DNA of 57,405 bases from a virus (Duplodnaviria; Caudoviricetes). The notes beneath the pieces were generated by a model. The model did not search any database. It was not told where the DNA came from and saw nothing but the letters and a program-made list of their open reading frames with translations. The stretch is taken from positions 1-57,405 of the IMG/VR virus record IMGVR_UViG_3300036834_000217; one strand, given 5' to 3'. The position numbers and the translations under genes are program-made. Positions 599 through 45,038 of this stretch are shown piece after piece (the first letter of the stretch is position 1; every line of letters starts with the position of its first letter).

Positions 599-1036
599 AT
601 GAAGACTCTCGCGCTGTCCACGCCAGACCAGACCGGAGGAGGCTGGGATCTGGTCGTTGACTCATCCGGCAACCTGGCCGTAAATTCCGGCGGCGTCGCG
701 CTTGCCCAGGATGTGGCCAGCGCGGTACGAACTTTTAGGGGAGAGCAGTGGTACGACTGGACCCTCGGCGTCCCGTACTTCCAGCAGATCCTCGGCCGGC
801 GAGTTTCCCTCCAGTTCGTGAAGCAGGCGCTCGTCGCGGCCGGGATGACCGTGCCGGACGTCGCCTCGATCACCTGCTTCCTGACCGGCCCCGGCGCGGG
901 CCGCGAGGTCGGAGGTCAATTGCAGATCAGGAGCACCAGCGGGCAGGTCGCGGTGGCCGAGACCGGGAACCTGCTCGGCACGCTGCCGTGGTGGGTATCG
1001 GCAGTCAGTGAGGAAGCCGCCGGAGCGACTACGTGA
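599..1036 (+). CDS. Baseplate wedge subunit (gp25/W-like)
   Basis: WDLVVDSSGNLA...AQDVASAVRTFRGEQWYD..LGVPY pattern typical of this myophage gene; lies between spike and baseplate J. Confidence 0.7.
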   Translation: MKTLALSTPDQTGGGWDLVVDSSGNLAVNSGGVALAQDVASAVRTFRGEQWYDWTLGVPYFQQILGRRVSLQFVKQALVAAGMTVPDVASITCFLTGPGAGREVGGQLQIRSTSGQVAVAETGNLLGTLPWWVSAVSEEAAGATT

Positions 1037-2466
1037 GCAACGGCTTCGTAACTGCGGTTCCTCAGCCGACCTTCGGGCCGACTGGAGTCGTCCTCCCGAC
1101 CGAGGACGCGATCCTCACCGGCGTCCAGACCGATATAAACTCGGCGCTCGGCGGGGGCGTCAACCCGGGGCTGACGACCCCCCAGGGGCAGATCGCGACC
1201 TCCGCCACCGCGATCATCGGGGACAACTACGCATTCCAGGAGTGGGTCTTCAGTCAGTTCGACCCGGCGCTCAACGAGGGCCGCGGGCAGGATGCAGTCG
1301 GGCGCATCTACTTCATGGATCGGATCTCGGCCGAGCCGACCGTCCAACCGTGCGTCTGCTCGGGCCTCAACACGACGCCGATACCTGTGGGGGCCCAGGC
1401 CCAGGACCCGGCGACTGGATTAATCTGGCTTTGCCAGCAGGCCGGGGCGATCGGGGCCTCGGGCACAGTTACTCTGAACTTCGAGTGCGCGACCTCTGGC
1501 CCGATCGCGGCGCCATCCAGCCTGAGGATCTACCAGCAGATCTACGGGTGGGAGAGCGTCGCCCCGACTGGATCCTCGGTACTCGGCAACCTCGTCGAGA
1601 CCCCGAGCCAGTACGAGGCCAGGCGGAGGGCGTCGGTCGCGGCCAACGCCAACCAGATCCTCGACGCGATCCAGGGCAAGGTACTCGCCCTGCCCGGCGT
1701 CCTCGACTTCTATGGCTATGACAACGTCCTGGCCACCAACGCGACGGTGGGCGGCGTGACGCTCGGGCCCAACTCGATCTACGTCGCCGTCCTCGGCGGA
1801 TCCTCCGCGGCCATCGCGTCCGCGATCTACTCGAAGAAGGGGCCGGGGTGCGGCTACAACGGCAACACGTGGGTGACGGTCCAGGACCCCAACCCGGCCT
1901 ACGTGCCGCCCGTGCCGACCTACAGCGTTGGCTACACCGTGCCGACGCTGGTCCCGTTCGTCGTCCTCGTCACGATGTCCAACAACTCGGGCGTCCCGAG
2001 CAACGCGCTGGCCCTGATCCAGAACGTTATCATCAGCGCCTTCGCCGGACTCGACGGGGGCTCCCGCGCCAAGGTCGGGTCGAGGGTACTGGCCAGCCGC
2101 TACTACGCCGGCGTCCTCGCTCTCGGGTCGTGGGCGCAGGTAGTGGAGATAGAGCTGGGAGTCCGCGGCAGCGGCGCGACGTTCACTGGGTCCATCACGC
2201 TTACCACGCTCACGGTCTCCGCCGTGGCCAGCGGGACGCTGGTCCCCGGCCAGCTGCTGCAGGACGCCGGGTTGCTGGCCACCGGCACCATCCTCGGGGT
2301 ACAGCTTACCGGAACGACTGGTGGTACCGGTACTTACACAGTGAGCAAGTCTCAGTCCGTCGCGTCCGAGACGATGTCCTCGACTACCCTCCTGGACTCG
2401 GTTACGATGAACATAAACCAGGCGCCGTCCGTGTCGGCCCTTAATATCAACCTGGTATTGCAGTGA
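1033..2466 (+). CDS. Baseplate J-like protein
   Basis: TPQGQIA, FDP...GRGQDAVGRIYF, G...ET...YEARR motifs; 477 aa; gene order. Confidence 0.85.
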   Translation: MSNGFVTAVPQPTFGPTGVVLPTEDAILTGVQTDINSALGGGVNPGLTTPQGQIATSATAIIGDNYAFQEWVFSQFDPALNEGRGQDAVGRIYFMDRISAEPTVQPCVCSGLNTTPIPVGAQAQDPATGLIWLCQQAGAIGASGTVTLNFECATSGPIAAPSSLRIYQQIYGWESVAPTGSSVLGNLVETPSQYEARRRASVAANANQILDAIQGKVLALPGVLDFYGYDNVLATNATVGGVTLGPNSIYVAVLGGSSAAIASAIYSKKGPGCGYNGNTWVTVQDPNPAYVPPVPTYSVGYTVPTLVPFVVLVTMSNNSGVPSNALALIQNVIISAFAGLDGGSRAKVGSRVLASRYYAGVLALGSWAQVVEIELGVRGSGATFTGSITLTTLTVSAVASGTLVPGQLLQDAGLLATGTILGVQLTGTTGGTGTYTVSKSQSVASETMSSTTLLDSVTMNINQAPSVSALNINLVLQ

Positions 2467-2473
2467 GGGGATT

Positions 2474-2797
2474 TTGATGATAGGCGCCCCGGACGTCGCA
2501 CCGCTGACTGAGGACGACAAGCTCTACGGCGCCGCGTTCAAGGTCGTGTACGAGCGCCTGAACCCGGACGCCTGCGGCCCGAGCGAGTGGCCCAAGCTGT
2601 GTGCCACGGCGGAGGTCATGCGCACCTGGGCGAGGGAGCAGGAGCCGGCCGTCCGCAGGGCGTACGAGCGCGCCATCGACGGCGAGGATCCCAGGTACCC
2701 GGGAATGATGCAGCGCGCCGCGGCTCGCGTCGAGAACGTGAGGCGCGGGGTCATCATGACAGACGCCTACAACTCCATCGCGAAGCCGCCGGTGTGA
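2474..2797 (+). CDS. Hypothetical protein inserted in the baseplate operon next to an orphan repeat array
   Basis: 107-aa ORF with upstream GAGGGG and phage-like codon usage. Confidence 0.55.
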   Translation: MMIGAPDVAPLTEDDKLYGAAFKVVYERLNPDACGPSEWPKLCATAEVMRTWAREQEPAVRRAYERAIDGEDPRYPGMMQRAAARVENVRRGVIMTDAYNSIAKPPV

Positions 2798-2826
2798 GGA
2801 AAGGAACGGGTGAGAGGATTTGTGTC

Positions 2827-2962
2827 CGATCCTCTTACCCGACTCGACTCGCTCTGAGTGATCGGTACTCTCAATGGCCGCGGCTCACTCTGGTCTCACG
2901 GTACTCTCCGAGATGCCGGCTCGCTCGACACTTCCGGTACTCTCGACGGCATCGGCTCGTCT
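2827..2962 (-). repeat. TIGR-like dual-repeat array 1 (orphan; 3 intact units plus 1 degenerate, 36-nt period)
   Basis: + strand CGGTACTCTC-type motifs at 2827 (degenerate), 2863, 2899, 2935 alternate with CGGCTCGCTC-type motifs at 2845, 2881, 2917, 2953; 8-nt variable spacers. Confidence 0.85.
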
Positions 2963-2979
2963 CTTAAATATACGGCTAG

Positions 2980-3666
2980 ATGATTAATTGGCAGCAAACC
3001 GTTCTGTCGCAGTATGCGTCCAGTCCGCGGCTCATGTCGCTGCTGACCGCGATCGACGCCTGGATCTCTCCCGACGGGGCGTACGAGAACTTCTACCAGT
3101 TCGTTTGGAACGTCCTGAGCGCCTCCAGCGGAAACGGAGGCGGATATAGCTATGGACTGGACGTATGGGGGAGAATCGTCAACATCCCCCGCGTCGTGAC
3201 TCTCACCGGCGTGCCGACTACCGGCTTCGCCGAGGCCGGCGACCGGGTAGGCTTCAACCAGGGGCCGTTCTACGAGGCTGGCATCGGCGTCACTACCAAC
3301 TTCCGGCTCGGCGATCCAGTCTACCGCCAGCTCATCCTGGCCAAGGCCGCCTACAACATCACCGACGGGTCGACCCAGGCGATCAACGCCATCCTGATGA
3401 ACCTGTTCGCCTACCGCGGAAACTGCTGGGTCACGGACGGGCGCAACGTCGGGCCCTCGTCGGTCGGCTTCGCCGAGGCCGGCGACCGGCTCGGCTTCAA
3501 CCAGGGCCCGTTCTACGACCTGATTCACCCGTCCCTCCCGGCGAATATGACACTCACCTATACGTTCTCGTTTCCTCTCCAGGACTTCGAGAAGGCAATA
3601 GTCCAGTCCGGCGTCCTGCCCAAGCCGACCGGAGTCCAGGCGTTCTGGGCGTTCCTCGGGGGTTGA
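2980..3666 (+). CDS. Baseplate protein (DUF2612-like)
   Basis: TVLSQYASSP, GLDVWGRIV, YRQLILAKA..NI, VLPKPTGV motifs; follows baseplate J. Confidence 0.8.
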   Translation: MINWQQTVLSQYASSPRLMSLLTAIDAWISPDGAYENFYQFVWNVLSASSGNGGGYSYGLDVWGRIVNIPRVVTLTGVPTTGFAEAGDRVGFNQGPFYEAGIGVTTNFRLGDPVYRQLILAKAAYNITDGSTQAINAILMNLFAYRGNCWVTDGRNVGPSSVGFAEAGDRLGFNQGPFYDLIHPSLPANMTLTYTFSFPLQDFEKAIVQSGVLPKPTGVQAFWAFLGG

Positions 3667-3670
3667 TCTA

Positions 3671-4372
3671 GTGCTACTGAGTCAGATACCTGCCAAGGTG
3701 CCCACGCCGTGGGCGAGTGGCTCCGGCTCGCCGTACATCCGCGCGGTCCCGACGCCGTCGCAGCAGAGCGTCCAGAATGGGGCGGCGAGCTTCACGGACG
3801 GGTTCCCGCCGCTCTGCTTCGTGCCGATCGCCACCGGCGGCGCCGGATTCTTCGGCTCCGACATGAACGGCATCCTGAATCAGGTCACCGCGGACATCCA
3901 GTGGCAGCAGGCGGGGGCGCCGTTCACGTTCGACCCCGCGTGGGCCACGGCGATCGGCGGCTACCCGCACGGTGCCCTGATCCCGTCGGACTCGGCGCCG
4001 GGTCAGTTCTGGTACTCGACGGTCGACAACAACTCGGCGGACCCAGACACGGGCGGAGCCAACTGGCTGTCGTACGCGATGCTGCTTGGTGGCACTGGGA
4101 ACGCCCAGATCATCCAGGTCGGGAACTCGCCCACTATAAACTGCTCGGCTGGCTACGGGCAAACAGCCGTCACCTTCCCGGTCGCCTTCCCCCACGCCTG
4201 CCTCCAGGTCGTGGCCAGCGACGACGGCGTGTTCCAGGGGGTCGTGGGGGGATGCGTGGTCTACGCGTGCAGCAGTATCACGGTTAACGGGTTTACTCTG
4301 ACCGCCGCTACGCCGGCCCAGCCGACTAGCACCGCTGCCGTGAACGCACGATACATAGCGGTAGGGTGGTGA
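3671..4372 (+). CDS. Tail fibre protein
   Basis: AS(F)TDGFPP...GG...G.DMNGIL, FD..WATAIGGYP.GA, S..DNN..DP motifs; C-terminal 'FPVAFPHAC' domain. Confidence 0.8.
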   Translation: MLLSQIPAKVPTPWASGSGSPYIRAVPTPSQQSVQNGAASFTDGFPPLCFVPIATGGAGFFGSDMNGILNQVTADIQWQQAGAPFTFDPAWATAIGGYPHGALIPSDSAPGQFWYSTVDNNSADPDTGGANWLSYAMLLGGTGNAQIIQVGNSPTINCSAGYGQTAVTFPVAFPHACLQVVASDDGVFQGVVGGCVVYACSSITVNGFTLTAATPAQPTSTAAVNARYIAVGW

Positions 4373-4373
4373 T

Positions 4374-4910
4374 ATGACGCAGTACGCGTACCACGACTCG
4401 TCCCAGCCAGACCCCAAGCCGGTGATCGGCTGGTACGACACCGAGCTGTATCGCTACCAGAGCCTCCCGGATCCCTCGAACCTGCTGGAGATGTCCCAGG
4501 AGCAGTGGGCGAAGCGCCAGGACGGCCTCTGGGCCGTGCAGAGTGGTACACTAGTTCCCTACTCTCCACCGGCGCCAGCGCCTTCCCTAGCACAGCGGGC
4601 GGCGACGCTACTGGTCGGTGGGCTGGACATCGTGAGCACGGGCGACCCGTCGCTGAGCGCCACCTACCCGTGCGACCTGATGGCCCAGCAGCAGATCTCC
4701 GCCGAGGTGGTCAGCATCCTGCTGAACGGTACGTTCACCGATGGCGGCCCCTCGATAGAGTGGCGCGACGCGGCCGGCGGTGATCACGCGCTCTCGGCGG
4801 ACCAATTTAAGGCATTAGCTACCGCCATCGCGGCGTTCGTGACAGCCTGCGCGAAGTGCGTCGCCGGGCAATCGACGACACTCCCATCTGCGAGATCCGA
4901 GATATCATGA
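4374..4910 (+). CDS. Tail fibre assembly/chaperone-like protein (DUF4376-like C-terminus)
   Basis: Follows tail fibre; 'VIGWYDT' N-terminus and 'WRDA.G..H.LSADQF..LA.A' C-terminus. Confidence 0.6.
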   Translation: MTQYAYHDSSQPDPKPVIGWYDTELYRYQSLPDPSNLLEMSQEQWAKRQDGLWAVQSGTLVPYSPPAPAPSLAQRAATLLVGGLDIVSTGDPSLSATYPCDLMAQQQISAEVVSILLNGTFTDGGPSIEWRDAAGGDHALSADQFKALATAIAAFVTACAKCVAGQSTTLPSARSEIS

Positions 4911-5809
4911 TCATCGCGGTGAACTCGTCCCCAGACGCCAGCGTATCTATCAACACCGCGCTGGCGCAGGCAGCCTCCCAGGGGGGCGGGGAGGTCATCA
5001 TCCCCGCCGGTCGATACCACGTCCCGCCGGCGTCGAGCATCAGGTGGCCGGCCAGCGCCAACGGCGTCAGCCTGGTCGGCGAGGGTCCGCTGGCATCGGT
5101 GATCCAGGCCGACGCCCGCGGCTCCGACCTGCTCGACCTGACCGCGGGCAACCTGGCCCACGTCAGGATCGCGGGACTCGGTATCTCGGCCCTCGCTCCC
5201 TGCTCCGGCGGAGCCATGATCCACGCGGCGAACTGCTACGACCTCGTGGTCGAGCGCGTGAGACTAGATGGCCCGCTCCGCGATGGAATCGCGATCGATG
5301 GGGGGACGAACCAGTACCTCACGACGCTCTCGTTCGTCGTGATGCCCGGTGACCCGCGCTCCTTCCGCTGCGTGGTCATCGGAGAGGCCGGGTACCCGCA
5401 GGACACGTACATCAGCCTGTGCAAGTTCGCCGCGACGCAGTACGGCATCTGGGTCCAGAACGCCGGGGGGGTCTACCCGTCCAGCACGGAGGTGCTGGGT
5501 CACGCCCAGCACGGACTCGTCACCTACCCGATGCCCGGGCAGTCCGTCGACTGGTTCCAGGCGACTCAGTTCCTCGCCGACTCGTGCGGCGGGACCGGGT
5601 GGTACCTCGGATCGGGTGGTGGTACCGTTCGCGGCGTCTCGTTATCTAACTCGTGGGCGGCGTCGTGCAACAACGGACTGGAGATCTCCGGCCAGTGCGC
5701 CGACGTCTGCGTCGACGCCCCGACCAGGTTCCTGGCCAACCGCAACCGATCGGTGATTGACTACGGCGGAACGAACGTCAGGGTCTCGGCCTGGATGGAC
5801 AGACCCTAA
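4907..5809 (+). CDS. Pectin-lyase-fold beta-helix protein (putative tailspike/depolymerase)
   Basis: N-terminal 'INTALAQAASQGGGEVIIPAGRY' and 'VSLVGEG..SVI' (Pectate_lyase_3-type); ATG 4907 overlaps the previous stop. Confidence 0.7.
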   Translation: MIIAVNSSPDASVSINTALAQAASQGGGEVIIPAGRYHVPPASSIRWPASANGVSLVGEGPLASVIQADARGSDLLDLTAGNLAHVRIAGLGISALAPCSGGAMIHAANCYDLVVERVRLDGPLRDGIAIDGGTNQYLTTLSFVVMPGDPRSFRCVVIGEAGYPQDTYISLCKFAATQYGIWVQNAGGVYPSSTEVLGHAQHGLVTYPMPGQSVDWFQATQFLADSCGGTGWYLGSGGGTVRGVSLSNSWAASCNNGLEISGQCADVCVDAPTRFLANRNRSVIDYGGTNVRVSAWMDRP

Positions 5810-5811
5810 GC

Positions 5812-6162
5812 TCACTTACTGGGCGGCTCCGGCTGCTGGGGAGGTATCGGCGTGTGCGGGTACCGCTGCGGCTGAGGCGGCTGGGACTGGCCGTTGGCCA
5901 GCTCGGTCTGCTGCTTGTTGATGCCCTCGACGTACTCCTTGAGCCACTTGTCCTTCGCCGCGACCTGCTCCTGTAGCACCGCCAGCTGGCCCTGGGTCTG
6001 CCCCAGCTTGAACAGTAGCTGGGCGGTGCCTATGTTCTGCTGCGCCTCCGCCGAGAGCGTGCTCTGCTGAAGCGTGACCTCCGGGGCGGTCTGGGCAAGT
6101 GCTGATCCGGCACCGAGCGCCAGTCCGGCCGCGAACGCGACTGCCTTGTGATTGATAATCAT
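5812..6162 (-). CDS. Small exported coiled-coil protein
   Basis: Signal-peptide-like AVAFAAGLALGAGSALA-Q, Q-rich coil, Pro-rich tail; AGGAG RBS. Confidence 0.65.
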   Translation of the reverse strand: MIINHKAVAFAAGLALGAGSALAQTAPEVTLQQSTLSAEAQQNIGTAQLLFKLGQTQGQLAVLQEQVAAKDKWLKEYVEGINKQQTELANGQSQPPQPQRYPHTPIPPQQPEPPSK

Positions 6163-6183
6163 CTCATCTCCTTTTTTTGAGGG

Positions 6184-6214
6184 AAGGGAGGCCCGAGTGG
6201 GCCTCCCTTTTTTT
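6184..6214 (+). terminator. Rho-independent terminator for rightward tail transcription
   Basis: AAGGGAGGCCC-GAGT-GGGCCTCCCTT hairpin followed by a T run. Confidence 0.8.
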
Positions 6215-6226
6215 GTCTAAAATTTA

Positions 6227-6376
6227 CGCTCTTAAGCACACGGTACTCTCTCCTCGCTCGGCTCGCTCAGCTTCACCGGTACTCTCCTCGCAGTCGGCTC
6301 GCTCGTAGAGCACGGCACTCTCTCCTCACTCGGCTCGCTCGTGGACAACGGTACTCTCTACCCACTCGGCTCGACG
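6227..6376 (-). repeat. TIGR-like dual-repeat array 2 (4 units)
   Basis: CGG(T/C)ACTCTC at 6241, 6277, 6313, 6349 and CGGCTCG(CTC) at 6259, 6295, 6331, 6367; exact 36-nt period. Confidence 0.9.
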
Positions 6377-6387
6377 TCGGCTCGACG

Positions 6388-6951
6388 TCACGGACGGGGC
6401 GGATCGGGTGGGTGGCCGCCCTGGTGGTCTGGTGGGGGAGGGCCCCTCTTCTCCAGCTCGTCCAGAATAGATTGGCGAAGGAGGCGCGCACCCTCGTCCT
6501 CCCAGCAGTCCTTAACCTGTTGGGTATCGTCCATCGGCTGCGCCAGGGCCTCGTAGAACTTCGCACGCCCGAAGTGCCCGTTCCCGGATGACCTCTCGTG
6601 CTTGGCCTCCCTCAGTAGGTCGTGCTTGTACGCGACGTCGAGGGTGGTGTTGCCGATGGGCCACGACGCGAGCATCGTGAGGGTGCGACGGCGGATCGCC
6701 AGCTTGGCGTTGGGATAGTCGTATCGTGGCGCGCCCGCTGCGACGGGTCGGACGCCATCAGACAGCTCCTCCGCCATTATGCGGGAGCGCTGTGTCTTGC
6801 GCATGTGGTGCTGCGCCCGGACGAGTCCCCCGCGCAGTAGGTATTCTATGAGCTCTCGGTGCTTGCGCGGGCTCCGGAGCAGGGCGTCCACTACGGCATC
6901 GATGCTGCCGTGCTCGGCCAGCAGCTTCAGTATTTCATTCTCGTGAGGCAA
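6388..6951 (-). CDS. Hypothetical protein nested between TIGR arrays (candidate Tas accessory)
   Basis: 187-aa ORF, TTG start 7 nt after AGGAG, bounded by arrays 2 and 3. Confidence 0.7.
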   Translation of the reverse strand: MPHENEILKLLAEHGSIDAVVDALLRSPRKHRELIEYLLRGGLVRAQHHMRKTQRSRIMAEELSDGVRPVAAGAPRYDYPNAKLAIRRRTLTMLASWPIGNTTLDVAYKHDLLREAKHERSSGNGHFGRAKFYEALAQPMDDTQQVKDCWEDEGARLLRQSILDELEKRGPPPPDHQGGHPPDPPRP

Positions 6952-6972
6952 ATGCCATCTCCTCTGATTAAT

Positions 6973-7192
6973 TCGCTCCTAGGTCCCGGTACTCTCAGCT
7001 CGCGCGGCTCGCTCGCCATTCGCGGTACTCTCCCTTCTATCGGCTCGCTCGGTAATCACGGTACTCTTCGACCTTTCGGCTCGCTCGATATGTCACAGCA
7101 CTCTCCGACCTTTCGGCTCGCTCGATGGATGCGGTACTCTCCCGTTCGACGGCTCGCTCGGGGACCACGGTACTCTCGCCGGAGGCGGCTCA
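6973..7192 (-). repeat. TIGR-like dual-repeat array 3 (6 units)
   Basis: Loop-type motifs at 6987, 7023, 7059, 7096, 7132, 7168 alternate with CGGCTCGCTC; 36-37 nt period; directly downstream of the Nop-domain gene. Confidence 0.92.
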
Positions 7193-7194
7193 AT

Positions 7195-8223
7195 TTACTC
7201 GGCGGCGAGCGCCTCGTATCCGTAATATGCCTCCGCGAACCCGGGAAACATGTTAATATCGGGGATGCGGATCTCGTGGGCATGTCCCAGGATCGCGGTC
7301 GCGAACGGTCTCGGCGGAGCCTGGTGGTTCTTGTTCCAGTGCATGATCGCCTGGACGTGCGACAGGAAGATCTTGGTGGCGTAGTTGCAAGCCTGTTGAT
7401 CCAGGTTGCCTGCCGGGAGCCTACCCTCATTCAGTACCTTGCGCACGTCCGCCGACCTGGTCGCGAAGACCTTGGCGCGCTCGGCGTAGTCGCCGTGCTC
7501 GTTGCGGGCCACGACCAGCGCCTTGTGCTCGCGATAGAGCCTCCCGTAGAGTGCCCGCGGCTCGCCCGATATCCGCTTGAAGCACTGCCCCGCGTGCCAG
7601 CAGATCTGCTTGAGGTCGGGACTGTAGGGGCGCCTGCTGAGTGCCTTGGCCAGTGACGCCCGCGTCAGCGGCACCGGGTTCCCGGCGTGGTCGGTCGTCG
7701 CGAACCTCAGTACCACGGAGAACTTCTTCCCGGTCTGCTCGCATAGGATCCGGACGTCCCGGTCCGTGGGCTGGGCGCCCCTGACGGCCTTGCACACCAT
7801 CTTGTCTGCGGCCTCCCGACTGATCCACTTGGCCGTCGGGTCGAGCCCCGCAAATGCCCAGATCGCCCCGGCCGTCGTTGCCCGCTCTATGTCGATGTAC
7901 GCCAGCAGCCCGGCCGCGATCACCTCCGCGACTCCGTCCTGGGTCATCATCCATAGGCCGACCGGACTTGCCTCGGCAAACTTCCGAAGTGCTTTCTTGA
8001 GGTCGTCCTCTATCGACGCCTGGGCGTCGCCGAAGTAGTCGAGCATGCTGACCGGGTCGTCCTTGTCGCCCCGATGGCGGAGCTGCATGTCTGCGCGTTT
8101 CCTTAGATCTTGTGCCTGGTAGTAGTTCGCCACGAGGCACCTCGCCTCGCCATTCGTGAGATTAGACGCGGAGAGGATCCTCTCTCTATCAGCCTTGATG
8201 TTCTTCGTGTCGGTACGCCTCAT
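7195..8223 (-). CDS. tasA: TasA-like Nop/IS110-related RNA-binding protein (no nuclease domain)
   Basis: Coiled coil (YYQAQDLRKR), then 'GVAEVIAAGLLAYIDIERATTAGAIWAFAGLDP' (IS110 Transposase_20/Nop fold), 'RPY...LK', 'YGRLY...K', 'KIFLSH'; no N-terminal RuvC DEDD; flanked on both sides by 36-nt dual-repeat arrays. Confidence 0.85.
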   Translation of the reverse strand: MRRTDTKNIKADRERILSASNLTNGEARCLVANYYQAQDLRKRADMQLRHRGDKDDPVSMLDYFGDAQASIEDDLKKALRKFAEASPVGLWMMTQDGVAEVIAAGLLAYIDIERATTAGAIWAFAGLDPTAKWISREAADKMVCKAVRGAQPTDRDVRILCEQTGKKFSVVLRFATTDHAGNPVPLTRASLAKALSRRPYSPDLKQICWHAGQCFKRISGEPRALYGRLYREHKALVVARNEHGDYAERAKVFATRSADVRKVLNEGRLPAGNLDQQACNYATKIFLSHVQAIMHWNKNHQAPPRPFATAILGHAHEIRIPDINMFPGFAEAYYGYEALAAE

Positions 8224-8246
8224 TTTGATCTCCTTTTTAAATTAAG

Positions 8247-8454
8247 TCGCTCTCTTCCTTCGATACTCTCAGTTTACACGGCTCGCTCAGCTTCACCGGT
8301 ACTCTCCCTTCGATACGGCTCGCTCGGTTATGTCGGCACTCTCGATTCGATCGGCTCGCTCCCTATTTACGGTACGCTCCCTTTGATACGGCTCGCTCCG
8401 CGATCTCGGTACTTTCCAGCTTATCGGCTCGCTTGTCCGGTTTTCGGTACTCTG
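8247..8454 (-). repeat. TIGR-like dual-repeat array 4 (5 units plus a partial)
   Basis: Loop-type motifs at 8261, 8297, 8334, 8370, 8407, 8445; edge-type at 8279, 8316, 8352, 8389, 8425. Confidence 0.9.
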
Positions 8455-8455
8455 A

Positions 8456-8980
8456 TTATACCGACAGCTCCGCCAGCATGTTCGTCACCGCCGAGAATGC
8501 CGCCTCGGCGCGGTCCCCGCGCCTCAGGCCGAGTACCCGGCGGACGTAGCTCCTGAGTCTGTCCCGCGCTCCCTTCGCGTTTGCCAGGACCTGGTCCACT
8601 AGGATGCCAGCGTCCCCCTTGTCGAGTACCAGCTCGACCACGGCCCGCGCGTCGACGGGCAGCTCCCGTATCAGCTCGGCTAGTAGCAGGCTCCGATCGG
8701 GGGGCGGCCCCGACTGGTCGGACAGGTCGATGCTCAGCTCGACCTGGTACTCGCTGGAGGGGGGAGTCCCCCTCCTGAGCCTCGGGACTGCGGAGCACAT
8801 CGCCCGGTAGACTCCGGTCGTGACGAACGTGTCGAGCGACGCCAGGTGAGGGTCGTAGCTCCCCGCGGCCTGTGCCTTCCACTGCGCTATCCGGGCCTCC
8901 TGGAGGAGGTCGTCTAGCTCGACGCCGCTCGTCCGGGCGAACTCGTGGGCGTACTTGAGTACGGCGGGGTGATCCTTCAT
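8456..8980 (-). CDS. Sigma-70-family (ECF-sized) RNA polymerase sigma factor-like protein
   Basis: Region-2-like 'ELDDLLQEARIAQWKA...YDP..ASLDTFV' and 'LIRELPVDARAVVEL'; ATG at 8980 after GGGAGAG. Confidence 0.7.
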   Translation of the reverse strand: MKDHPAVLKYAHEFARTSGVELDDLLQEARIAQWKAQAAGSYDPHLASLDTFVTTGVYRAMCSAVPRLRRGTPPSSEYQVELSIDLSDQSGPPPDRSLLLAELIRELPVDARAVVELVLDKGDAGILVDQVLANAKGARDRLRSYVRRVLGLRRGDRAEAAFSAVTNMLAELSV

Positions 8981-9168
8981 GATTGTTCTCTCCCATTGAT
9001 TGTAGTGGTCCTGGTCTCCGCCTCCGGCGGCACGCCCTCGAAGCGGGCGGACCGCCGCGCGACCGCGAGCGCCAGCTCCTCGGTCGATGCCGCAACCTTG
9101 ACGACCGTGGTGCGGGTCAGGCCTGAGTCCGGCATGCCCCACGTCACGCGGACGTCGAAGTTCCTCAC
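8977..9168 (-). CDS. Hypothetical protein
   Basis: 63-aa ORF translationally coupled within the leftward operon. Confidence 0.5.
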   Translation of the reverse strand: MRNFDVRVTWGMPDSGLTRTTVVKVAASTEELALAVARRSARFEGVPPEAETRTTTINGREQS

Positions 9169-9506
9169 TTTCGTTCCTCGGCCGCCGGATCATCGGGCTG
9201 GTTAGAGTCGTCGAACGAGAACTTGGTCGGCTCCCGGTCGTGGTACCTGGCGAATACGACCACGTCGGTGGGCGCTACCTCCTGCGTGGCCCTTCGATCC
9301 CACGTCCTGTGATAGAAGTCGGGCGGGCCCCAGACCGCGACCGCCGAGTGATACTCCTCGCCGCGGAACCCGACGAAGTGGGTGGCCGGCTCCGCGTCGG
9401 CGAACAGGAGGTCTACGGGTCGCGCCCGCAGGCGCGGGCACCTCTCGTCGCAGTGTGCCGGGTGCGGGCAGTCGCCGCCCGCGGGGCATATCGAGGCGTC
9501 ACTCAT
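9165..9506 (-). CDS. Hypothetical protein
   Basis: ATG 9506 overlaps the upstream stop; 'HFVGFRGEEY..AV.VWG.PDF.HR.WD.R' looks like a conserved phage domain. Confidence 0.6.
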   Translation of the reverse strand: MSDASICPAGGDCPHPAHCDERCPRLRARPVDLLFADAEPATHFVGFRGEEYHSAVAVWGPPDFYHRTWDRRATQEVAPTDVVVFARYHDREPTKFSFDDSNQPDDPAAEERK

Positions 9507-9814
9507 CTTACTGATTTCCCTTCCCACCTGATAATCCACTCGTCCCACTTCTCGGGGTCCAGGAGGGCGAACCTCCCGGACGCGCAGACTGCGTAGAGGC
9601 ACCCGCCGTCGTCCGGCGCGAGCCCCCGCGCGAACCGGACGGCCCACGGGAACACCGTGAACCGCGTCTCCCGGCGCCCGTTCCTCAGCTCGATCACCGA
9701 GAAGTGGGCCGCGCGGTCGAACGCGACTGCGTCCCAGTCCGACCGGGACCTCCCGAAGTCGTGCTCGGAGCCACCCCGCGGGGTGACGAGTGGCTGCTGC
9801 TTGCTGATAGGCAT
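9503..9814 (-). CDS. Hypothetical protein (first gene of the leftward operon)
   Basis: ATG 9814 downstream of GGAGG and a sigma70-like promoter. Confidence 0.55.
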   Translation of the reverse strand: MPISKQQPLVTPRGGSEHDFGRSRSDWDAVAFDRAAHFSVIELRNGRRETRFTVFPWAVRFARGLAPDDGGCLYAVCASGRFALLDPEKWDEWIIRWEGKSVR

Positions 9815-9855
9815 GACGTTAAATACTTCCTCCCGAGGTCGCCCGTATTGCCCAT

Positions 9856-9884
9856 ACCATATGCGATCTTTCGAAAAATCGCAA
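9856..9884 (-). promoter_or_regulatory. Sigma70-like leftward promoter driving the sigma/TasA/array operon
   Basis: TTGCGA-N17-TATGGT on the minus strand in an AT-rich intergenic region. Confidence 0.55.
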
Positions 9885-9917
9885 AGGAAAAAATGCGATC
9901 TTTCGAAAAAAATTCTC

Positions 9918-9946
9918 TTGCGGTTTTTCGCAAAGAGGCGCATATT
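9918..9946 (+). promoter_or_regulatory. Sigma70-like rightward promoter
   Basis: TTGCGG-N17-CATATT; near-identical to the promoter at 48926-48954 (-). Confidence 0.65.
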
Positions 9947-10176
9947 CCCCTCGTCGACTACGAGAGGAGATCGAGGAAATGACCAACTGGCCTACGCGCG
10001 GAGGGCGAGGATCGTCGACGGTGATGACGGGAGGGTCTACGTCCTGGAGCTGTCCTACCCGGGCCACCTCTGCGTGATGAGGGGAACGATGGACTACCAG
10101 CATGAGCTCATCTTCGAGCGCGAGCAGCCGAAGCGCCATGCCGATCTTATGATGCTGTTCGTAGAGGAGTGAGCGG

Positions 10177-11187
10177 ATGTCTAACAACGTATTGAGACTA
10201 ATATCGAAGCTACTGGCCGTCCGGGAGTCGCGAGGCGCCACCGAGGCGGAGGCGTCCCTGGCCGCCGAGCGTATCCAAGACCTTCTCCAGAAGCACAACC
10301 TGACCCTCGCCCAGGTAGAGGCCGCGGGCGGGGAGTCCGACGGAGACGTCAGGCGCGAGAAGCGTGATACCGGCCGGCGAGCCATGTACAACTACCAGCG
10401 CGCACTCCTCGCGGCCCTGGCCGATAATAACTTTTGCATCCACCGGGTGGCGAGTTCCTTCGTGCCCGACGACAGCCACGGCCGCAAGACGACTAAGCTG
10501 ATCAACGGCGAGCACGTTACCGGCTACTACGAGAAGCGCCACGTGCTGGTGGGCCGCGCCATGAACGTCCGGGTCACCCAGGATACGTACGACTACCTGC
10601 TCCAGGCCATGCGCCGCGCGGCGGACGAGGCCGGGCACGCCGGCGGGATGCGCCGGACCAAGAGTGACTTCTACGACGGCTGCGTCAGTAGACTGACCGA
10701 GCGCCTGGCGGAGAAGGTGATCCAGGCCAAGAAGGAGAGCGAGCGGGCCGCGCGGGGCAACGGCACTCACAAGGAGCTGGCCCTGTCCGACGTGTACGGT
10801 ACCGAGGCGGACCTGAACAACGACTTCCTGAACAGCTTCCCGAGGGGCACCACCGCCGCGAGGCGTCGCCAGGATGAGGAGCGGAAGGCGCGCATCGATG
10901 CCGAGAGGAATCGACTAGTCGCCGAGGGGTTGGGCCAGGTCGAGGCGTGGTACCGCGCCCACGGCTACGGCGAGGAGCGCGCGACCGAGCTGGCCAACAA
11001 CTGGGAGCGTCAGCAACGGCGTGCCAGGACTGGACGCGGCCGCAGCCAGCGCTGGACGACTGGTGACCACGACCGGCTCCGCAAGGTGAACTCCGCCGAG
11101 TACAAGGCCGGTCGGAGTGCGGGCGGGAAGATCGGACTCGACTCCCAGGTGGGCGCGGGGTCCGCGAAGAAGATCGGGAGGTCGTGA
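10177..11187 (+). CDS. DUF2786-domain protein
   Basis: N-terminal 'ISKLLA......TEAEASLAAERIQDLLQKHNL' helical hairpin. Confidence 0.75.
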   Translation: MSNNVLRLISKLLAVRESRGATEAEASLAAERIQDLLQKHNLTLAQVEAAGGESDGDVRREKRDTGRRAMYNYQRALLAALADNNFCIHRVASSFVPDDSHGRKTTKLINGEHVTGYYEKRHVLVGRAMNVRVTQDTYDYLLQAMRRAADEAGHAGGMRRTKSDFYDGCVSRLTERLAEKVIQAKKESERAARGNGTHKELALSDVYGTEADLNNDFLNSFPRGTTAARRRQDEERKARIDAERNRLVAEGLGQVEAWYRAHGYGEERATELANNWERQQRRARTGRGRSQRWTTGDHDRLRKVNSAEYKAGRSAGGKIGLDSQVGAGSAKKIGRS

Positions 11188-34659: not shown

Positions 34660-35076
34660 ATGAAAGCTATTCTTCTTATCGTCTTCGCGATAACGACCGC
34701 AGCGCACGCGGATGAATATGTGCGCTGCTTCTATGAACTTCCGGAGTTAGGGACGATGTCATTTGTCGAGAGAGCCGACGATGTCCAGAGATGGTTAGAT
34801 GCCAAGCGAGCCGATCACTCAATCCCAGATTGGGACTCGAAGCCGCGCTGCGAGCCGTTGGACCTAACCCCTGTCTATCACCTGCTAACTCGGGCCGCGA
34901 ATGGAACTGTCTCTCTTCAGAGCGGACTTACCGAGGATGCATGCCAGACCATAAGTCATCGGCTGACCGATCCTCCGTGCTCTGATAGCTGCTCTTGGAT
35001 AGAGCAACCGGGGGGACATCCGCACTGCGCAATGCTTCAAATGATCGAGGCGGGGTGGATGATTCGGGTACCCTGA
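34660..35076 (+). CDS. Hypothetical exported Cys-containing protein
   Basis: Signal-peptide-like MKAILLIVFAITTAAHA-D. Confidence 0.5.
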   Translation: MKAILLIVFAITTAAHADEYVRCFYELPELGTMSFVERADDVQRWLDAKRADHSIPDWDSKPRCEPLDLTPVYHLLTRAANGTVSLQSGLTEDACQTISHRLTDPPCSDSCSWIEQPGGHPHCAMLQMIEAGWMIRVP

Positions 35077-43900: not shown

Positions 43901-45038
43901 CGCCCCGACCGGTACCATCTCGTTCGTCATGGACTGCGATACGACTGGGATAGAGCCCGACTTCGCCCTGGTCAAGCACAAGAGCCTGGCCGGCGGCGGA
44001 TCCATGCGGATCGTCAACCAGGCAGTTGAGGAAGGTCTCCGACGTAAAGGTCGAAGCGAGAGCTGGATCAGCGAGGCACTGGCCGAGATAGAGTGGACGG
44101 ATAAGCTGAAATTTACTGACTCTGTCGAATTCGCTTGTGCCAATGATATCGCGTGGGAAGATCACGTCAAGATGGTCGCCGTCGTCCAGCCGTTCCTGTC
44201 TGGAGGCGTGAGTAAGACGATCAACATGCCACGCGACGCTACGGTAGACGACGTCGATCGTGCATACCGCCTGGCCCACCAGCTCGGGGTCAAGACCATC
44301 TCGATATACCGAGACGGTAGTAAATTGTCGCAACCTCTCTCATCGAGACGAGACGAGAGTACCGAGCAAGCTGAGCGAGTCGCCCCACGGGAGAGTATCG
44401 AGTATCTAGAGCGCTTACCTCGCGGCGCCCGCGAGTATCTTCCTTGGCGTCGCGAGGCAGGCTGGACCCAGAAAATTAAGATCGGCCAGGACCGTCAGAG
44501 CGTCTTCCTCCGCGTGTCCGAGTACCCCGACGGACGCCCCGGCGAGGTGTTCCTGGAGATCGCGGGCGAGGGCAGTACCCTCCGCGCCCTGGCCAACTGC
44601 CTCGCCATCTCGATCTCGGTGGGGCTCCAGCGCGGCGTTCCGGTCGCCGAGTACGTGGACCAGCTCGTCGGGCTCAAGTTCGAGCCGGCCGGCTACGTCG
44701 AGGGCCACTCCCGCATCAGGTTCGCCAGTTCGATCGCCGACTACATAGGACGGGAGCTGGGGATCTCATACGCCGGCCGCGACGACCTGGCGAACGCGCC
44801 CGCCCCGATCGCGGAGGCCGTCGAGCGTATCGCGGAGCACTCCGAGCGACTGGACGAGGAGTGGAGACTGTCCGTCAAGGACAATGAGCAGCTCGTGGCG
44901 CACGGTAATCAGACGACGACGATGTCGAAGTATTTTGAACAGACCGGCGACATGTGCCCCGGCTGCGGCGCCCTCCTCCGCCGGGCCGGCACCTGCCGCT
45001 CGTGCCCGAACTGCTCCTGGAGCGAGGGGTGCGGGTGA
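40995..45038 (+). CDS. nrdJ: Class II (B12-dependent) ribonucleotide reductase with an intein and a C-terminal TSCPD/Zn-ribbon domain
   Basis: 'PNSPQWFN', 'PQPHACFI', 'GGTTRRAA', 'NPC|SEY', 'CNLAS', 'LGLGY', 'APTGTI', 'SKTINMP', 'YRDGSK'. Confidence 0.95.
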   Translation: MKFTRVLTYDKPNDVRVEDWIRWRIVDAVITAPDGRVIFEQRGVEVPEQWSQNAANILAQKYFRKAGVPSAVSYHLGVPDMPEWLRPRVPVNSATFGGETSAKHVFHRMAGCWTYWGWREGLLTSEDDARVFYDEVFASLALQYAAPNSPQWFNTGIHWAYGIEGPDSGQWYAGDVSPYFEGTRLKMPRIEVKRIHNSYERPQPHACFIQTVEDDLVNPGGMMDLWTREARLFKHGSGSGSNMSKIRGRGEKLSGGGVSSGLMSFLRVGDRSAGSIKSGGTTRRAALMRVLDMDHPEIEDFIDWKATEEYKAACIAVGSRVIHDRLTSVARHRGDDRRVPRFDREADALGSWVPQSLVDRAKAGESDWPVHEADSFEGDAIETVSGQNSNNSVRVSNDFLHQVDNPDRLHSLTARTTGEVVRYVPVRGLWTRLCRAAWASGDPGVQFSDTINDWHTCRADGPINASNPCCFVGETFVDTSEGFISIEELARMSAVGEDLPWAFCFDQEDALPDLRPIARAWCSGYAHKLTEVTTRNGQVLYCTPEHGWLTRRAEGYVAARDLRVGTSLQKINREINTKRSDRVVLTHRSVGESSYGRSSQHKFVWEKMRGAVPSDYDVHHLNEDPTDDRFSNLGIKEFSLHQSEHSRGDRNPRFLDVDDETLVEVYDAAGRDPLSTRRRGKGIVTVGVWNKYVRKMGLFGVVPLGNLRDGGRIRGMSWDSFVERMEAARARVNDSVLSVKSIELDDPVPVYDIEVEGCHNFGVRSDATRNGDSIIVHNSEYLFLDDTACNLASIRLTKFLPLDDAAMSKFDHVVRLWTVVLEISVYMASFPSEAIARNSYLYRTLGLGYTDLGGLLMRQAIPYASDEGRAIAAGLTALMTGVAYRTSAEMAAEVGSFLRWEANAENMRRVLRNHRTALFTEKLFYAPMRIDPYRKPALQMESGLRDRCLAVWDLVVAAPAFRNAQVTLLAPTGTISFVMDCDTTGIEPDFALVKHKSLAGGGSMRIVNQAVEEGLRRKGRSESWISEALAEIEWTDKLKFTDSVEFACANDIAWEDHVKMVAVVQPFLSGGVSKTINMPRDATVDDVDRAYRLAHQLGVKTISIYRDGSKLSQPLSSRRDESTEQAERVAPRESIEYLERLPRGAREYLPWRREAGWTQKIKIGQDRQSVFLRVSEYPDGRPGEVFLEIAGEGSTLRALANCLAISISVGLQRGVPVAEYVDQLVGLKFEPAGYVEGHSRIRFASSIADYIGRELGISYAGRDDLANAPAPIAEAVERIAEHSERLDEEWRLSVKDNEQLVAHGNQTTTMSKYFEQTGDMCPGCGALLRRAGTCRSCPNCSWSEGCG
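42402..43328 (+). mobile_element. Intein (309 aa) with an HNH endonuclease
   Basis: Begins CFVGET, block B 'CTPEH', ends 'VYDIEVEGCHNF...IIVHN' before Ser; central 'VHHLNEDPTDDRFSNL...H..EH'. Confidence 0.92.

Follow-up and report, generated by a model that had tools for sequence, protein, structure and literature searches.

A TIGR-TasA cassette with dual-repeat arrays in a soil phage genome

Compact, RNA-guided and independent of a PAM, TIGR-Tas systems bind DNA and currently attract interest from engineers; the part of the TIGR-Tas literature considered here leaves open what they target in nature, which accessory factors they use and how their arrays grow. Dual-repeat arrays alternate two different repeats of 8-12 nt with two spacers of about 9 nt (8-12), and TasA differs from TasH and TasR in lacking an HNH or RuvC nuclease domain. 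In the system of Flavonifractor plautii (FpTasA; Faure et al., Science 2025, PMC12045711), short repeats of two kinds alternate, each unit of about 36 nt includes two short spacers, the arrays adjoin a nuclease-free Nop-domain protein, and this protein binds 36-nt processed RNAs. In the TIGR arrays of the same report, edge repeats are truncated where an array ends and a hairpin follows the final array, and total spacer length is given as 18 nt for FpTIGR and 16 nt for SpTIGR. Its tasA-tasParB operons (fig. S14) join tasA to a second small gene, with 10-nt dual-repeat arrays upstream, downstream and between the genes, the operon being conserved and its flanks variable; homology of tasParB to ParB was found there by HHpred. 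SpTIGR-TasH of Salicola phage CGphi29 (PDB 9W03, 9W04, 21KL) combines a dual-repeat array, in which the spacers total 16 nt, with a TasH that carries an N-terminal HNH nuclease and cuts DNA. The stem-loop TasA proteins (MbTasA, PlTasA; 10.64898/2026.09.09.750476, 10.64898/2026.08.11.744272) are nuclease-free and bind DNA via a tandem-spacer guide, but their guide units are stem-loops and they are described as having no C-terminal processing loop.

Here we report a locus of this type in a window of 57,405 nt, by which we mean the whole stretch of DNA analysed (IMG/VR record IMGVR_UViG_3300036834_000217). An earlier reading of the letters had taken the locus to be phage-borne, and the virus record indeed holds PHROG matches for baseplate, tail-fibre and replication functions. 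The TIGR-TasA kind has been in print since 2025, and the locus adds to it a further well-documented example, unusual in a few details, rather than a new kind. New are the cassette bounds drawn from a relative (G006), an unannotated partner family, an opposite-strand guide unit in a ribonucleotide reductase (RNR) gene, and spacer duplication. The core of the locus comprises the following features:

8456..9193, minus strand: sigma-70/ECF-like gene (Pfam Sigma70_r2, 24.4 bits, cut-off 24)
6216..8454, minus strand: entire cassette of about 2.24 kb, in the order array, tasA, array, partner gene, array; right boundary approximate
8247..8454, minus strand: TIGR array A3, beginning 1 nt past the stop codon of the sigma-like gene
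7195..8223, minus strand: tasA, encoding a 342-aa nuclease-free TIGR-associated Nop-domain protein
6973..7192, minus strand: TIGR array A2, 6 units
6388..6951, minus strand: gene of the 187-aa partner protein, starting with TTG; the product is largely helical and belongs to an unannotated family
6227..6376, minus strand: TIGR array A1, 4 units
6184..6209, minus strand: G+C-rich hairpin after A1, terminator-like in both directions (-25.4 kcal/mol, z -4.0)

The locus shares with FpTasA the composition of its units and the adjoining nuclease-free protein, with the arrays of Faure et al. the truncated ends and the closing hairpin, and with the tasA-tasParB operons the operonic second gene, the repeat length of 10 nt, the placement of the arrays (likewise in the related loci L001 and L016) and a conserved operon in variable flanks. 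It differs from FpTasA in having four arrays plus a plus-strand unit, and in its protein, which falls in a separate metagenomic/viral clade and has a 59-aa insert. The multi-array layout, which the sequence-only reading had called unusually dispersed, is not unusual: the same three-array arrangement is in print in the methods of Faure et al. (PMC12045711) and recurs in relatives, with the same cassette layout found in unrelated contexts (L001, L003 and L016). In a comparison of five records, the features that stand out are limited to the 3-unit array lying apart and the unit on the plus strand in the RNR gene.

The 342-aa protein is a TasA: it belongs to the Tas proteins and has no nuclease domain. 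It matched the NCBIfam model TIGR_Tas_endo (NF052498) with 133 bits (E 1.4e-38, cut-off 100), and a profile of its family matched TasR (1e-13) and TasH (3.3e-13) in the PDB. A fold check against Tas and IS110 proteins, proposed together with the original assignment, was run with an all-helical AlphaFold model (pLDDT 84.9): TasH or TasR complexes filled the ten best Foldseek rows in the PDB (E 3.6e-5 to 3.3e-4; TM by target 0.51-0.69), with SpTIGR-TasH as the best structural match, and IS621/ISCro4 ranked after them (E 0.19-0.96). The sole Pfam match at E<=1 was to Transposase_20 (residues 93-131, 20.2 bits, below the cut-off of 21.3), no RuvC, HNH or DEDD family was matched in TasA at that threshold, and nothing in TasA corresponds to the N-terminal HNH part of about 50 aa in the alignment to SpTasH. 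These results agree with the sequence-only reading, which had described a 342-aa gene with a Transposase_20/Nop core and neither RuvC nor HNH, and had placed it in the nuclease-less TasA type. Among INPHARED phages, blastn found no match to positions 6000-9200 and tblastn none to TasA, and a scan of GTDB species genomes with a few peptide patterns from the alignment returned no TasA relative.

Some of these observations could also be expected of an IS110-type RNA-guided transposase with bridge RNAs, namely the sub-threshold Transposase_20 match, a match to PHROG 4285 'transposase' (E 1.4e-20) and the weaker fold matches to IS621/ISCro4; the IS110/IS621 recombinases also resemble this locus in their RNA-binding core (Transposase_20/Nop-like) and in using a guide of two parts in tandem. 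However, the protein has no RuvC-like DEDD domain by Pfam and no recombinase serine domain, the Tas-specific NCBIfam model is matched above its cut-off, TasH and TasR outscore the IS110 enzymes by at least 3 orders of magnitude in the fold search, and arrays of tandem 36-nt dual-repeat units replace the single bridge RNA, from which they differ. A CRISPR array, in which a single repeat of about 23-55 nt would alternate with spacers of comparable length next to cas genes, is contradicted by repeats of two different kinds and only 10 nt, spacers of 8-9 nt and the absence of cas genes (no Cas family among the PHROG matches of 52 ORFs). An IS110/bridge-RNA or CRISPR identity is refuted by the domain, fold and repeat evidence, and we assign it a negligible probability.

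Across 21 TasA relatives, 56 alignment columns are invariant, and 6 of the 21 aligned members share the 59-aa insert (residues 138-196 here). The histidine of the C-terminal 'LGH' motif, H314, is invariant (21/21) and corresponds by motif to the catalytic H296 of SpTasH (RPFATAILGH here, RPLYVQEKLGH in SpTasH). By the same motif, the position of the processing residue Y289 of SpTasH is taken by Phe307 here, with F in 19 and Y in 2 of the 21 family members; both correspondences rest on the motif, as MAFFT left the loop unaligned. Because the Tyr of the published Y/H dyad is replaced by Phe307, autonomous processing is not assured. Two invariant tyrosines (333 and 334) lie downstream of Phe307 in the TasA family.

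Each unit reads, on the minus strand, edge repeat GAGCGAGCCG, spacer A (8-9 nt), loop repeat GAGAGTACCG and spacer B (8-9 nt), giving units of 36-37 nt and a guide of 16-18 nt; Tandem Repeats Finder returned periods of 36/37 and 72/73 at A1, A2 and A3. A script parse of the minus strand recovered the exact coordinates of the three arrays that had been claimed, as well as their dual-repeat units of about 36 nt with two 8-9-nt spacers, and counted 15 units in A3, A2 and A1 and 18 with a fourth array, A4, where about 15 and about 18 had been given. A3 (8454-8247) holds 5 full units preceded by a loop repeat and a 10-nt spacer; it starts with that loop repeat, unlike A2 and A1, which both start with a 5'-truncated edge (GAGCCG), 3 nt past the tasA stop codon in the case of A2. 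The opposite ends are 3'-truncated edges: GAGCGA in A3, 23 nt upstream of the tasA start codon, GAGCGA in A2, right upstream of the partner-gene ribosome-binding site, and GAGCG in A1. Both tasA and the 187-aa gene are thereby set between a 3'-truncated and a 5'-truncated edge repeat.

The edge 10-mer (<=1 mismatch) occurred 35 times, compared to 17.07 +/- 3.99 in shuffles (35 reached in 0/100), and the loop 10-mer occurred 26 times, compared to 5.52 +/- 2.12 (reached in 0/100). All exact minus-strand copies of the edge (n=13) and of the loop (n=11) lie within the four arrays, where they make up 24 of the 34 full-length repeats; some repeats of A3 are degenerate. Both repeats start with GAG and end with CCG, and relatives keep GA...(C/T)CG, in contrast to the letters UG...CCA that form the box D-like start and box C-like end of both repeats in TasR arrays. 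Two pairs of spacers are identical (0/2000 shuffles) and four pairs agree within 1 mismatch (1/2000 shuffles). An Rfam search of positions 2000-10500 gave no match at E<=0.1.

The bounds of the cassette were set by comparison with G006, a cassette-free syntenic sister phage (about 75% nt identity, 94% complete) that has no tasA. In the BLAST alignment with G006, positions 2979-6097 and 8874-8980 of the window align and positions 6098-8873 do not. At the G006 junction, the sigma stop codon is followed by 12 nt and then by a terminator hairpin, the counterpart of the hairpin at 6184-6209; the cassette occupies the interval from the sigma-like gene's stop codon to this hairpin. By this comparison, the sigma-like gene, which probably begins at Met72 (8980), belongs to the backbone and is present in G006, and the cassette sits in the 3' untranslated region of this gene. 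A promoter scan found no convincing promoter belonging to the cassette itself; a TATAAT that overlaps the sigma stop codon has no acceptable -35, was unflagged in the scan and is also present in G006. The hairpins after A1 and A4 have weak U-tracts.

Taken together, the arrays, the protein and the bounds identify a dual-repeat TIGR-TasA system, carried as an accessory cassette of about 2.24 kb in a soil phage, and we think it probable that it acts through its guides as follows. Read-through from the sigma-like gene would transcribe the cassette as a single precursor, which would be cut in the middle of the edge repeats into about 15 tigRNAs of 36-37 nt, the same cuts freeing the tasA and partner-gene mRNAs. 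A TasA dimer would carry one tigRNA, whose spacer A would base-pair with one DNA strand and whose spacer B would do so with the neighbouring segment of the opposite strand, at a site of 16-18 bp that needs no flanking motif (PAM), and the nuclease-free protein would remain bound and block transcription (or replication) there. A4 would supply three more guides from a small transcription unit of its own, and the partner protein may be a clade-specific cofactor. The sequence-only reading had held the role of TasA to be unresolved; a 2026 preprint (Xu et al., 10.64898/2026.09.09.750476) presents MbTasA, a stem-loop TasA and not a dual-repeat TasA of the clade described here, as an RNA-guided repressor in E. 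coli, with target-DNA binding in EMSA and guide-dependent, reversible repression of reporters and of a chromosomal gene. A use in regulation or interference, as the sequence-only reading proposed, is plausible.

We searched for targets in the window itself. Neither tandem geometry gave a self-target with <=2 mismatches on the 57.4-kb contig (0 sites), the shuffled-spacer expectation being 1.33 at exactly 2 mismatches, 0.03 at 1 and none at 0, and there were 0 exact sites on the contig in four orientations with gaps of 0-6 nt. Single spacers occurred 64 times outside the arrays, compared to about 67 by chance. Since no matching site is present on the contig, which represents about 69% of the genome (CheckV) and leaves room for self-targets in the missing part, targets most likely lie outside it; the proposed action would then be directed most likely at the host or at competing mobile elements. 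A foreign target is inferred here from absence, because, by our own arithmetic, searches of large databases with 16 nt would give so many chance matches as to drown any signal, a point also made by Xu et al. (10.64898/2026.09.09.750476).

Alternatively, the system might regulate the phage's own genes, with targets in the unsequenced ~31% of the genome and perhaps in concert with the sigma-like factor encoded next to it; it could serve as a repressor that times the infection programme or exert RNA-guided transcription control analogous to dCas12f-sigmaE. The minus-strand module starts with the sigma-like gene, which is probably co-transcribed with the cassette, there is precedent for a nuclease-dead RNA-guided protein paired with an ECF sigma factor (PMC12259090; 10.1101/2025.06.10.658880), and Xu et al. 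(10.64898/2026.09.09.750476) include regulation of the viral lifecycle among possible roles. This explanation is nonetheless unlikely in our judgement, given 57.4 kb without a target in any geometry, single-spacer occurrences at chance level, and a sigma-like gene that belongs to the backbone and is found in the TasA-less G006. Of 5 TasA-bearing records, the window alone gave a Sigma70_r2 match; the linkage is thus not conserved, and a functional link between the sigma-like factor and TasA was set aside on these grounds.

The partner protein belongs to a family with 341 representatives at E<=1e-3, for which no Pfam, PHROG or NCBIfam match was found in the case of the protein encoded here. Its model (pLDDT 81.5) gave no Foldseek match at E<=0.001 and a best VIA-align Z of 4.5; a PDB sequence search with the family profile reached a best E of 0.9, and an ESM Atlas search returned no usable match. 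Differently from what is described for tasParB, Pfam found no ParB_N in the protein or in 40 family members, and no ParB structure is among the fold matches shown by Foldseek and VIA-align; a six-frame search of five records with PF02195 gave 0 matches in the window and none near tasA in the four relatives. The four supplement files of Faure et al. (PMC12045711), a set to which the fig. S14 PDF does not belong, contain no TasA or partner peptide of the window, no copy of its edge repeat and no 'ParB'. The chances that the partner gene is of the same family as tasParB are close to even.

Among eight contigs found with the partner protein as query, the family adjoins TIGR arrays in 6 and tasA in 4, and 2 have neither tasA nor an array. 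Conversely, 3 of 7 related tasA loci have no member of the family within the flanks fetched. These last two counts would fit a partner gene that is captured cargo, expressed off the array transcript, beside an ordinary one-protein TIGR-TasA system. We regard this as possible but doubtful: against it stand the frequent adjacency to arrays and tasA, two contigs (L017 and L019) whose records stop right at the array and place tasA beyond reach of the data, the persistence of the tasA-partner linkage in L003 despite reversed gene order, and a scan of 185,579 prokaryote species genomes with few peptide patterns that found no member of the family. The predicted complex of TasA with the 187-aa protein (score 0.00, mark 0.32) speaks neither for nor against binding. 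If the partner protein is required, the dual-repeat TasA systems of this clade would be two-component systems; the locus offers a partner family, unannotated and hundreds of members strong, that accompanies the arrays.

Outside the cassette, we identified the following array-related features:

2845..2962, minus strand: separate ('orphan') array A4, 3 units
2967..2994, minus strand: promoter-like site right upstream of A4 (CTGCCA, 16 nt, TATATT; a consensus match only)
2807..2841, minus strand: hairpin directly after A4 (-24.4 kcal/mol, z -3.2; weak U-rich tail)
44355..44413, plus strand: guide units in the RNR gene, about 1.5 units (a complete unit and a leading half-unit)
34768..34821, plus strand: unit that has probably decayed, with two edge-like 10-mers (1 mismatch each) at a distance of exactly 36 nt

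A4 lies antisense in a 183-nt spacer between two plus-strand structural genes, and this spacer is not common to G006. The units at 44355-44413 are in frame within a linker of the class II RNR gene (40995-45038) and read loop repeat, spacer, edge GAGCGAGTCG, spacer, loop GAGAGTATCG, spacer and GAGCG; they had no place in the sequence-only reading. At 34768-34821, the letters after the second edge-like 10-mer, ATCACTCA, match spacer B of unit A4.3 exactly.

Such fragments raise the question of whether the cassette is a selfish or decaying passenger, a mobile module that scatters pieces of its arrays and has no present guide-directed function for the phage. It is an insertion relative to G006, array fragments lie in one intergenic spacer and inside two coding regions, some repeats are degenerate, the spacers are partly duplicated (2 identical pairs, 4 within 1 mismatch), and L014 has its tasA match in two parts, separated by about 2.2 kb. 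Yet the reading frames of tasA and the partner gene are unbroken, and their ribosome-binding sites follow directly on the ends of the arrays; 56 columns are invariant over 21 TasA relatives, 24 of 34 full-length repeats are exact, A1, A2 and A3 keep the truncated-edge ends needed for complete terminal guides, and no transposase, integrase or terminal repeats were seen in the cassette. We consider a passenger without function quite unlikely, and retain as the more probable reading the guide-directed action proposed above.

A more far-reaching proposal, which we hold to be rather improbable although worth stating, joins two claims: that the 187-aa protein is a dedicated second TIGR component, with a fold not among solved structures, acting in tigRNA biogenesis or at the bound target, and that the genome catches TIGR units in the course of moving and multiplying. 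The second claim draws on units duplicated or half-exchanged within and between arrays, on the 3-unit array, complete in itself, that would have been seeded into the spacer between structural genes, and on an intact unit recombined into the RNR linker at a patch of microhomology. If this were so, processing of the RNR-borne unit by TasA would cut the RNR mRNA, and the locus would provide the first concrete handle on the growth of TIGR arrays without adaptation machinery. The sequence traces themselves are direct, bearing on duplication and dispersal of units and including a guide unit in an essential metabolic gene. For positions 5800-9300, the runs listed were three of soil-metagenome DNA and none of RNA. 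The probable source run covers the stretch, two further runs contained short pieces of it (e.g., 8323-8695 and 7907-8139) with 0-1 differences, and the contigs showed no array variants.

On the minus strand, we identified three arrays between positions 8454 and 6227 in which two 10-nt repeats, an edge repeat (GAGCGAGCCG) and a loop repeat (GAGAGTACCG), alternate and are separated by spacers of 8-9 nt. Every repeat was placed by script and the units were counted for each array: A1, A2 and A3, which surround tasA, and the separate array A4 hold 18 units in total, each of 36-37 nt. Periods of 36/37 and 72/73 were detected at A1, A2 and A3 by Tandem Repeats Finder (TRF). Comparison to shuffled sequences shows 35 occurrences of the edge motif (at most 1 mismatch) vs. 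17.07 ± 3.99, and 26 of the loop motif vs. 5.52 ± 2.12, numbers that 0 of 100 shuffles equalled in either case. The array coordinates, unit structure and counts of the sequence-only reading are all right.

Features of the locus and of the dispersed units
8454-8247, minus strand: array A3, 5 full units, with a loop repeat and a 10-nt spacer ahead of them
7195-8223, minus strand: tasA, 342-aa ORF (NCBIfam, Foldseek, family profile)
7192-6973, minus strand: array A2, 6 units
6388-6951, minus strand: partner gene, 187 aa (profile family, neighbourhood)
6376-6227, minus strand: array A1, 4 units
2962-2845, minus strand: array A4 (separate), 3 units
34768-34821, plus strand: probable decayed TIGR unit, two edge-like 10-mers exactly 36 nt apart, inside ORF 34660-35076
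44355-44413, plus strand: one complete unit and a half-unit, in frame in ORF 40995-45038 (RNR)

The 342-aa ORF passes NF052498 TIGR_Tas_endo, the NCBI curated model for Tas proteins (E = 1.4e-38, 133 bits, cut-off 100); its sole Pfam match, Transposase_20, is below threshold, no nuclease family was found by Pfam, and its PHROGs family carries the label 'transposase'. Among 6483 candidates scored, 765 proteins, mostly of 275-295 aa, are related at E ≤ 0.001. The AlphaFold model, built with 21 family members as input, is of good confidence (pLDDT 84.9, pTM 0.82) and all-helical. Foldseek against the PDB, one of the fold checks proposed by the sequence-only reading, returned TasH/TasR cryo-EM complexes as all ten best matches (E = 3.6e-5 to 3.3e-4), followed by the weaker IS110-type recombinases IS621 and ISCro4 (E ≥ 0.19), and the family profile matched TasR at 1e-13 and TasH at 3.3e-13. 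Taken together, the model score, the fold and profile matches and the lack of a nuclease family show that this gene is a TasA, so that the identification of a TIGR-TasA locus from the sequence was true. Residues 138-196 form an insert that only 6 of these 21 relatives carry.

The locus belongs to a kind published in 2025-2026. Faure et al. 2025 (PMC12045711) define TIGR arrays, TasA, TasH and TasR, 36-nt tigRNAs and the targeting of both DNA strands, and Xu et al. (preprint 10.64898/2026.09.09.750476) catalogue 6,685 arrays, note that arrays may lie on both sides of tas, describe for dual-repeat systems a C-terminal Y/H processing loop that is conserved, and present one TasA that binds target DNA and acts as a guide-dependent, reversible transcriptional repressor. 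Given that repression and binding, the earlier statement that the role of TasA is unresolved is partly outdated; and since flanking arrays are in print, the three-array layout, which had been called unusually dispersed, is not unusual in itself. What the locus adds is threefold: a cleanly delimited cassette, an unannotated partner family, and traces of unit duplication and dispersal.

The cassette is delimited by comparison with G006, a 114.5-kb viral record (94% complete) reached via the closest RNR homologue, which is syntenic with the window at ~75% nucleotide identity and from which tasA is absent. The alignment covers window positions 2979-6097 and 8874-8980 and leaves 6098-8873 unaligned. 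In G006, the sigma-like gene has the same '...ggtataat' end; a terminator hairpin comes 12 nt later, and after it the homologue of the 116-aa gene. In the window, A3 begins 1 nt past the sigma-like stop codon and A1 stops just short of the corresponding hairpin. Because it is missing from G006 and lodged between this stop codon and this hairpin, the array-tasA-array-partner-array unit (~6216-8454) is, judged from sequence comparison, an accessory cassette within a backbone gene's 3' untranslated region. A promoter scan found none convincing within the cassette. The sigma-like gene matches Sigma70_r2 at 24.4 bits (Pfam cut-off 24); none of the other four records examined shows such a gene linked to tasA. 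The hairpin after A1 (6165-6232, both strands), flanked by A-runs and T-runs and followed on the plus strand by seven T, resembles a terminator that works in both directions; it escaped the terminator scan, whose stem extension took in the T-run.

Two scans of viral contigs for TasA relatives yielded 7 distinct contigs, 6 of which carry period-36 arrays (TRF), several with the identical two repeats, and in 4 of the 7 a homologue of the 187-aa gene adjoins tasA. The gene order of the window (array, tasA, array, partner gene, array) recurs in contig L001; in L003 the order differs, with tasA after the partner gene. In the 117-kb viral contig L014, the tasA match falls in two pieces ~2.2 kb apart (L014:353-964 and L014:3142-3549); a 10-unit array built of the same two repeats comes next, and the partner gene after that.

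A word-based search with the partner protein returned only itself. A profile of three homologues, searched against 1.84 billion representatives, matched 341 proteins at E ≤ 1e-3, of which 86 reach ≤ 1e-10 and 8 reach ≤ 1e-30; almost all are 160-200 aa long. There was no meaningful Pfam family match and no PHROG match in any of 40 aligned members, and NCBIfam and PDB sequence searches gave no match for the protein or family. The predicted structure is helical for the most part (pLDDT 81.5). Foldseek gave no match for it at E ≤ 0.001, and the best VIA-align Z among 48,161 chains, 4.5, is at the level of noise. A six-frame search found no ParB_N in the window or near tasA in four complete relatives; the family may equal the published TasParB. 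Searching the collections with the partner protein itself yielded 8 distinct contigs: 4 have tasA within the fetched flanks, 6 have an adjoining TIGR array, and 2 (L015/L020 and L018) have neither. In L017 and L019, the record stops at the array and leaves no flank in which tasA could be seen. Given the arrays in 6 of 8 contigs, the partner family travels with TIGR arrays.

Both tasA and the partner gene have a 3'-truncated edge (GAGCGA) on one side and a 5'-truncated one (GAGCCG) on the other. As the mature tigRNA ends lie in the middle of edge repeats, according to PMC12045711, and the genes lie between truncated edges, we infer that one long precursor would be cut at every edge repeat, freeing ~15 guides and two mRNAs. 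The catalytic histidine H296 of SpTasH (PMC13421893) corresponds by the motif '...LGH' to His314, a residue that all 21 members share. The SpTasH tyrosine Y289 corresponds, again by motif, to Phe307 (F in 19 of 21, Y in 2 of 21), so processing may depend on a different residue, on a host RNase or on the partner protein. By analogy with the published behaviour of the family, TasA would bind 16-18-bp tandem sites and repress sterically. For 19 guides, in either tandem order and with up to 2 mismatches, no self-target was found on the contig; the expectation from shuffled spacers is 1.33 sites at exactly 2 mismatches, 0.03 at 1 and none at 0. Nor did the contig have any exact site when four orientations and gaps of 0-6 nt were searched. 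Single spacers occur on the contig 64 times vs. ~67 by chance. The spacers have a G+C content of 50% as a whole and of 39% in A3, compared with 64% for the genome. The record is a virus fragment (~69% complete by CheckV), and under self-regulation the targets may lie within the missing third of the genome; against this stand the lack of a target site on the contig and the chance-level single spacers. Foreign targets are the simplest reading.

The 38 spacers include 2 identical pairs (equalled or exceeded in 0 of 2000 composition-preserving shuffles) and 4 pairs within one mismatch (1 of 2000). One identical pair is shared between A1 and A3, and spacer repetition is also seen in relatives G001, G003 and G004, which points to arrays growing by duplication and divergence, with exchange among them. 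Contigs of run X1, from the soil sample that is the probable source, match part of A3 and then, at 8334 and 8394, continue for 255 nt into sequence unrelated to the window; that sample seems to contain other elements with these repeats.

We applied one loop-spacer-edge pattern to the window and four complete relatives. In each relative, all pattern units are on one strand in a single cluster of ≤3.6 kb. Of the 13 in the window, 12 belong to the four minus-strand arrays and 1, at 44355, is on the plus strand; reversed-pattern controls gave 0 in every record. A4 lies antisense within the 183-nt spacer that separates two structural genes, with a promoter-like site (a consensus match only) upstream and a hairpin downstream; the spacer in G006 is unrelated. 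The plus-strand element, opposite in strand to the four arrays, lies in a variable, disordered RNR linker, and its three repeats in exact 18-nt register are expected ~4e-8 times per genome, as estimated from shuffle chance rates. In the closest RNR homologues, the linker is longer and unrelated in sequence, yet the peptide ERVAP is shared; in the window, the edge-like repeat and the first spacer bases encode it. This suggests that the unit may have reached RNR by recombination at a patch of microhomology. At 34768-34821, the second edge-like 10-mer is followed by an 8-mer equal to spacer B of A4 unit 3, and the element is probably a decayed TIGR unit.

The small gene 34660-35076 has a signal-peptide-like start. 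The RNR gene (40995-45038, plus strand, 1347 aa; closest homologues ~1030-1110 aa) contains an intein with an HNH endonuclease (Pfam PF14890, PF13392; PHROG HNH matches at residues 577-651). Phage genes identified by PHROG comprise baseplate, tail-fibre, primase, helicase, polymerase, clamp, recombinase, thymidylate synthase and class II RNR. Between two baseplate-gene matches, G006 has ~3.2 kb (60050-63227) that is missing from the window (996-1034). The DNA polymerase is in two plus-strand ORFs, 24735-25970 and 26240-27628, which match successive phrog_17 positions (476-774 and 837-1236).
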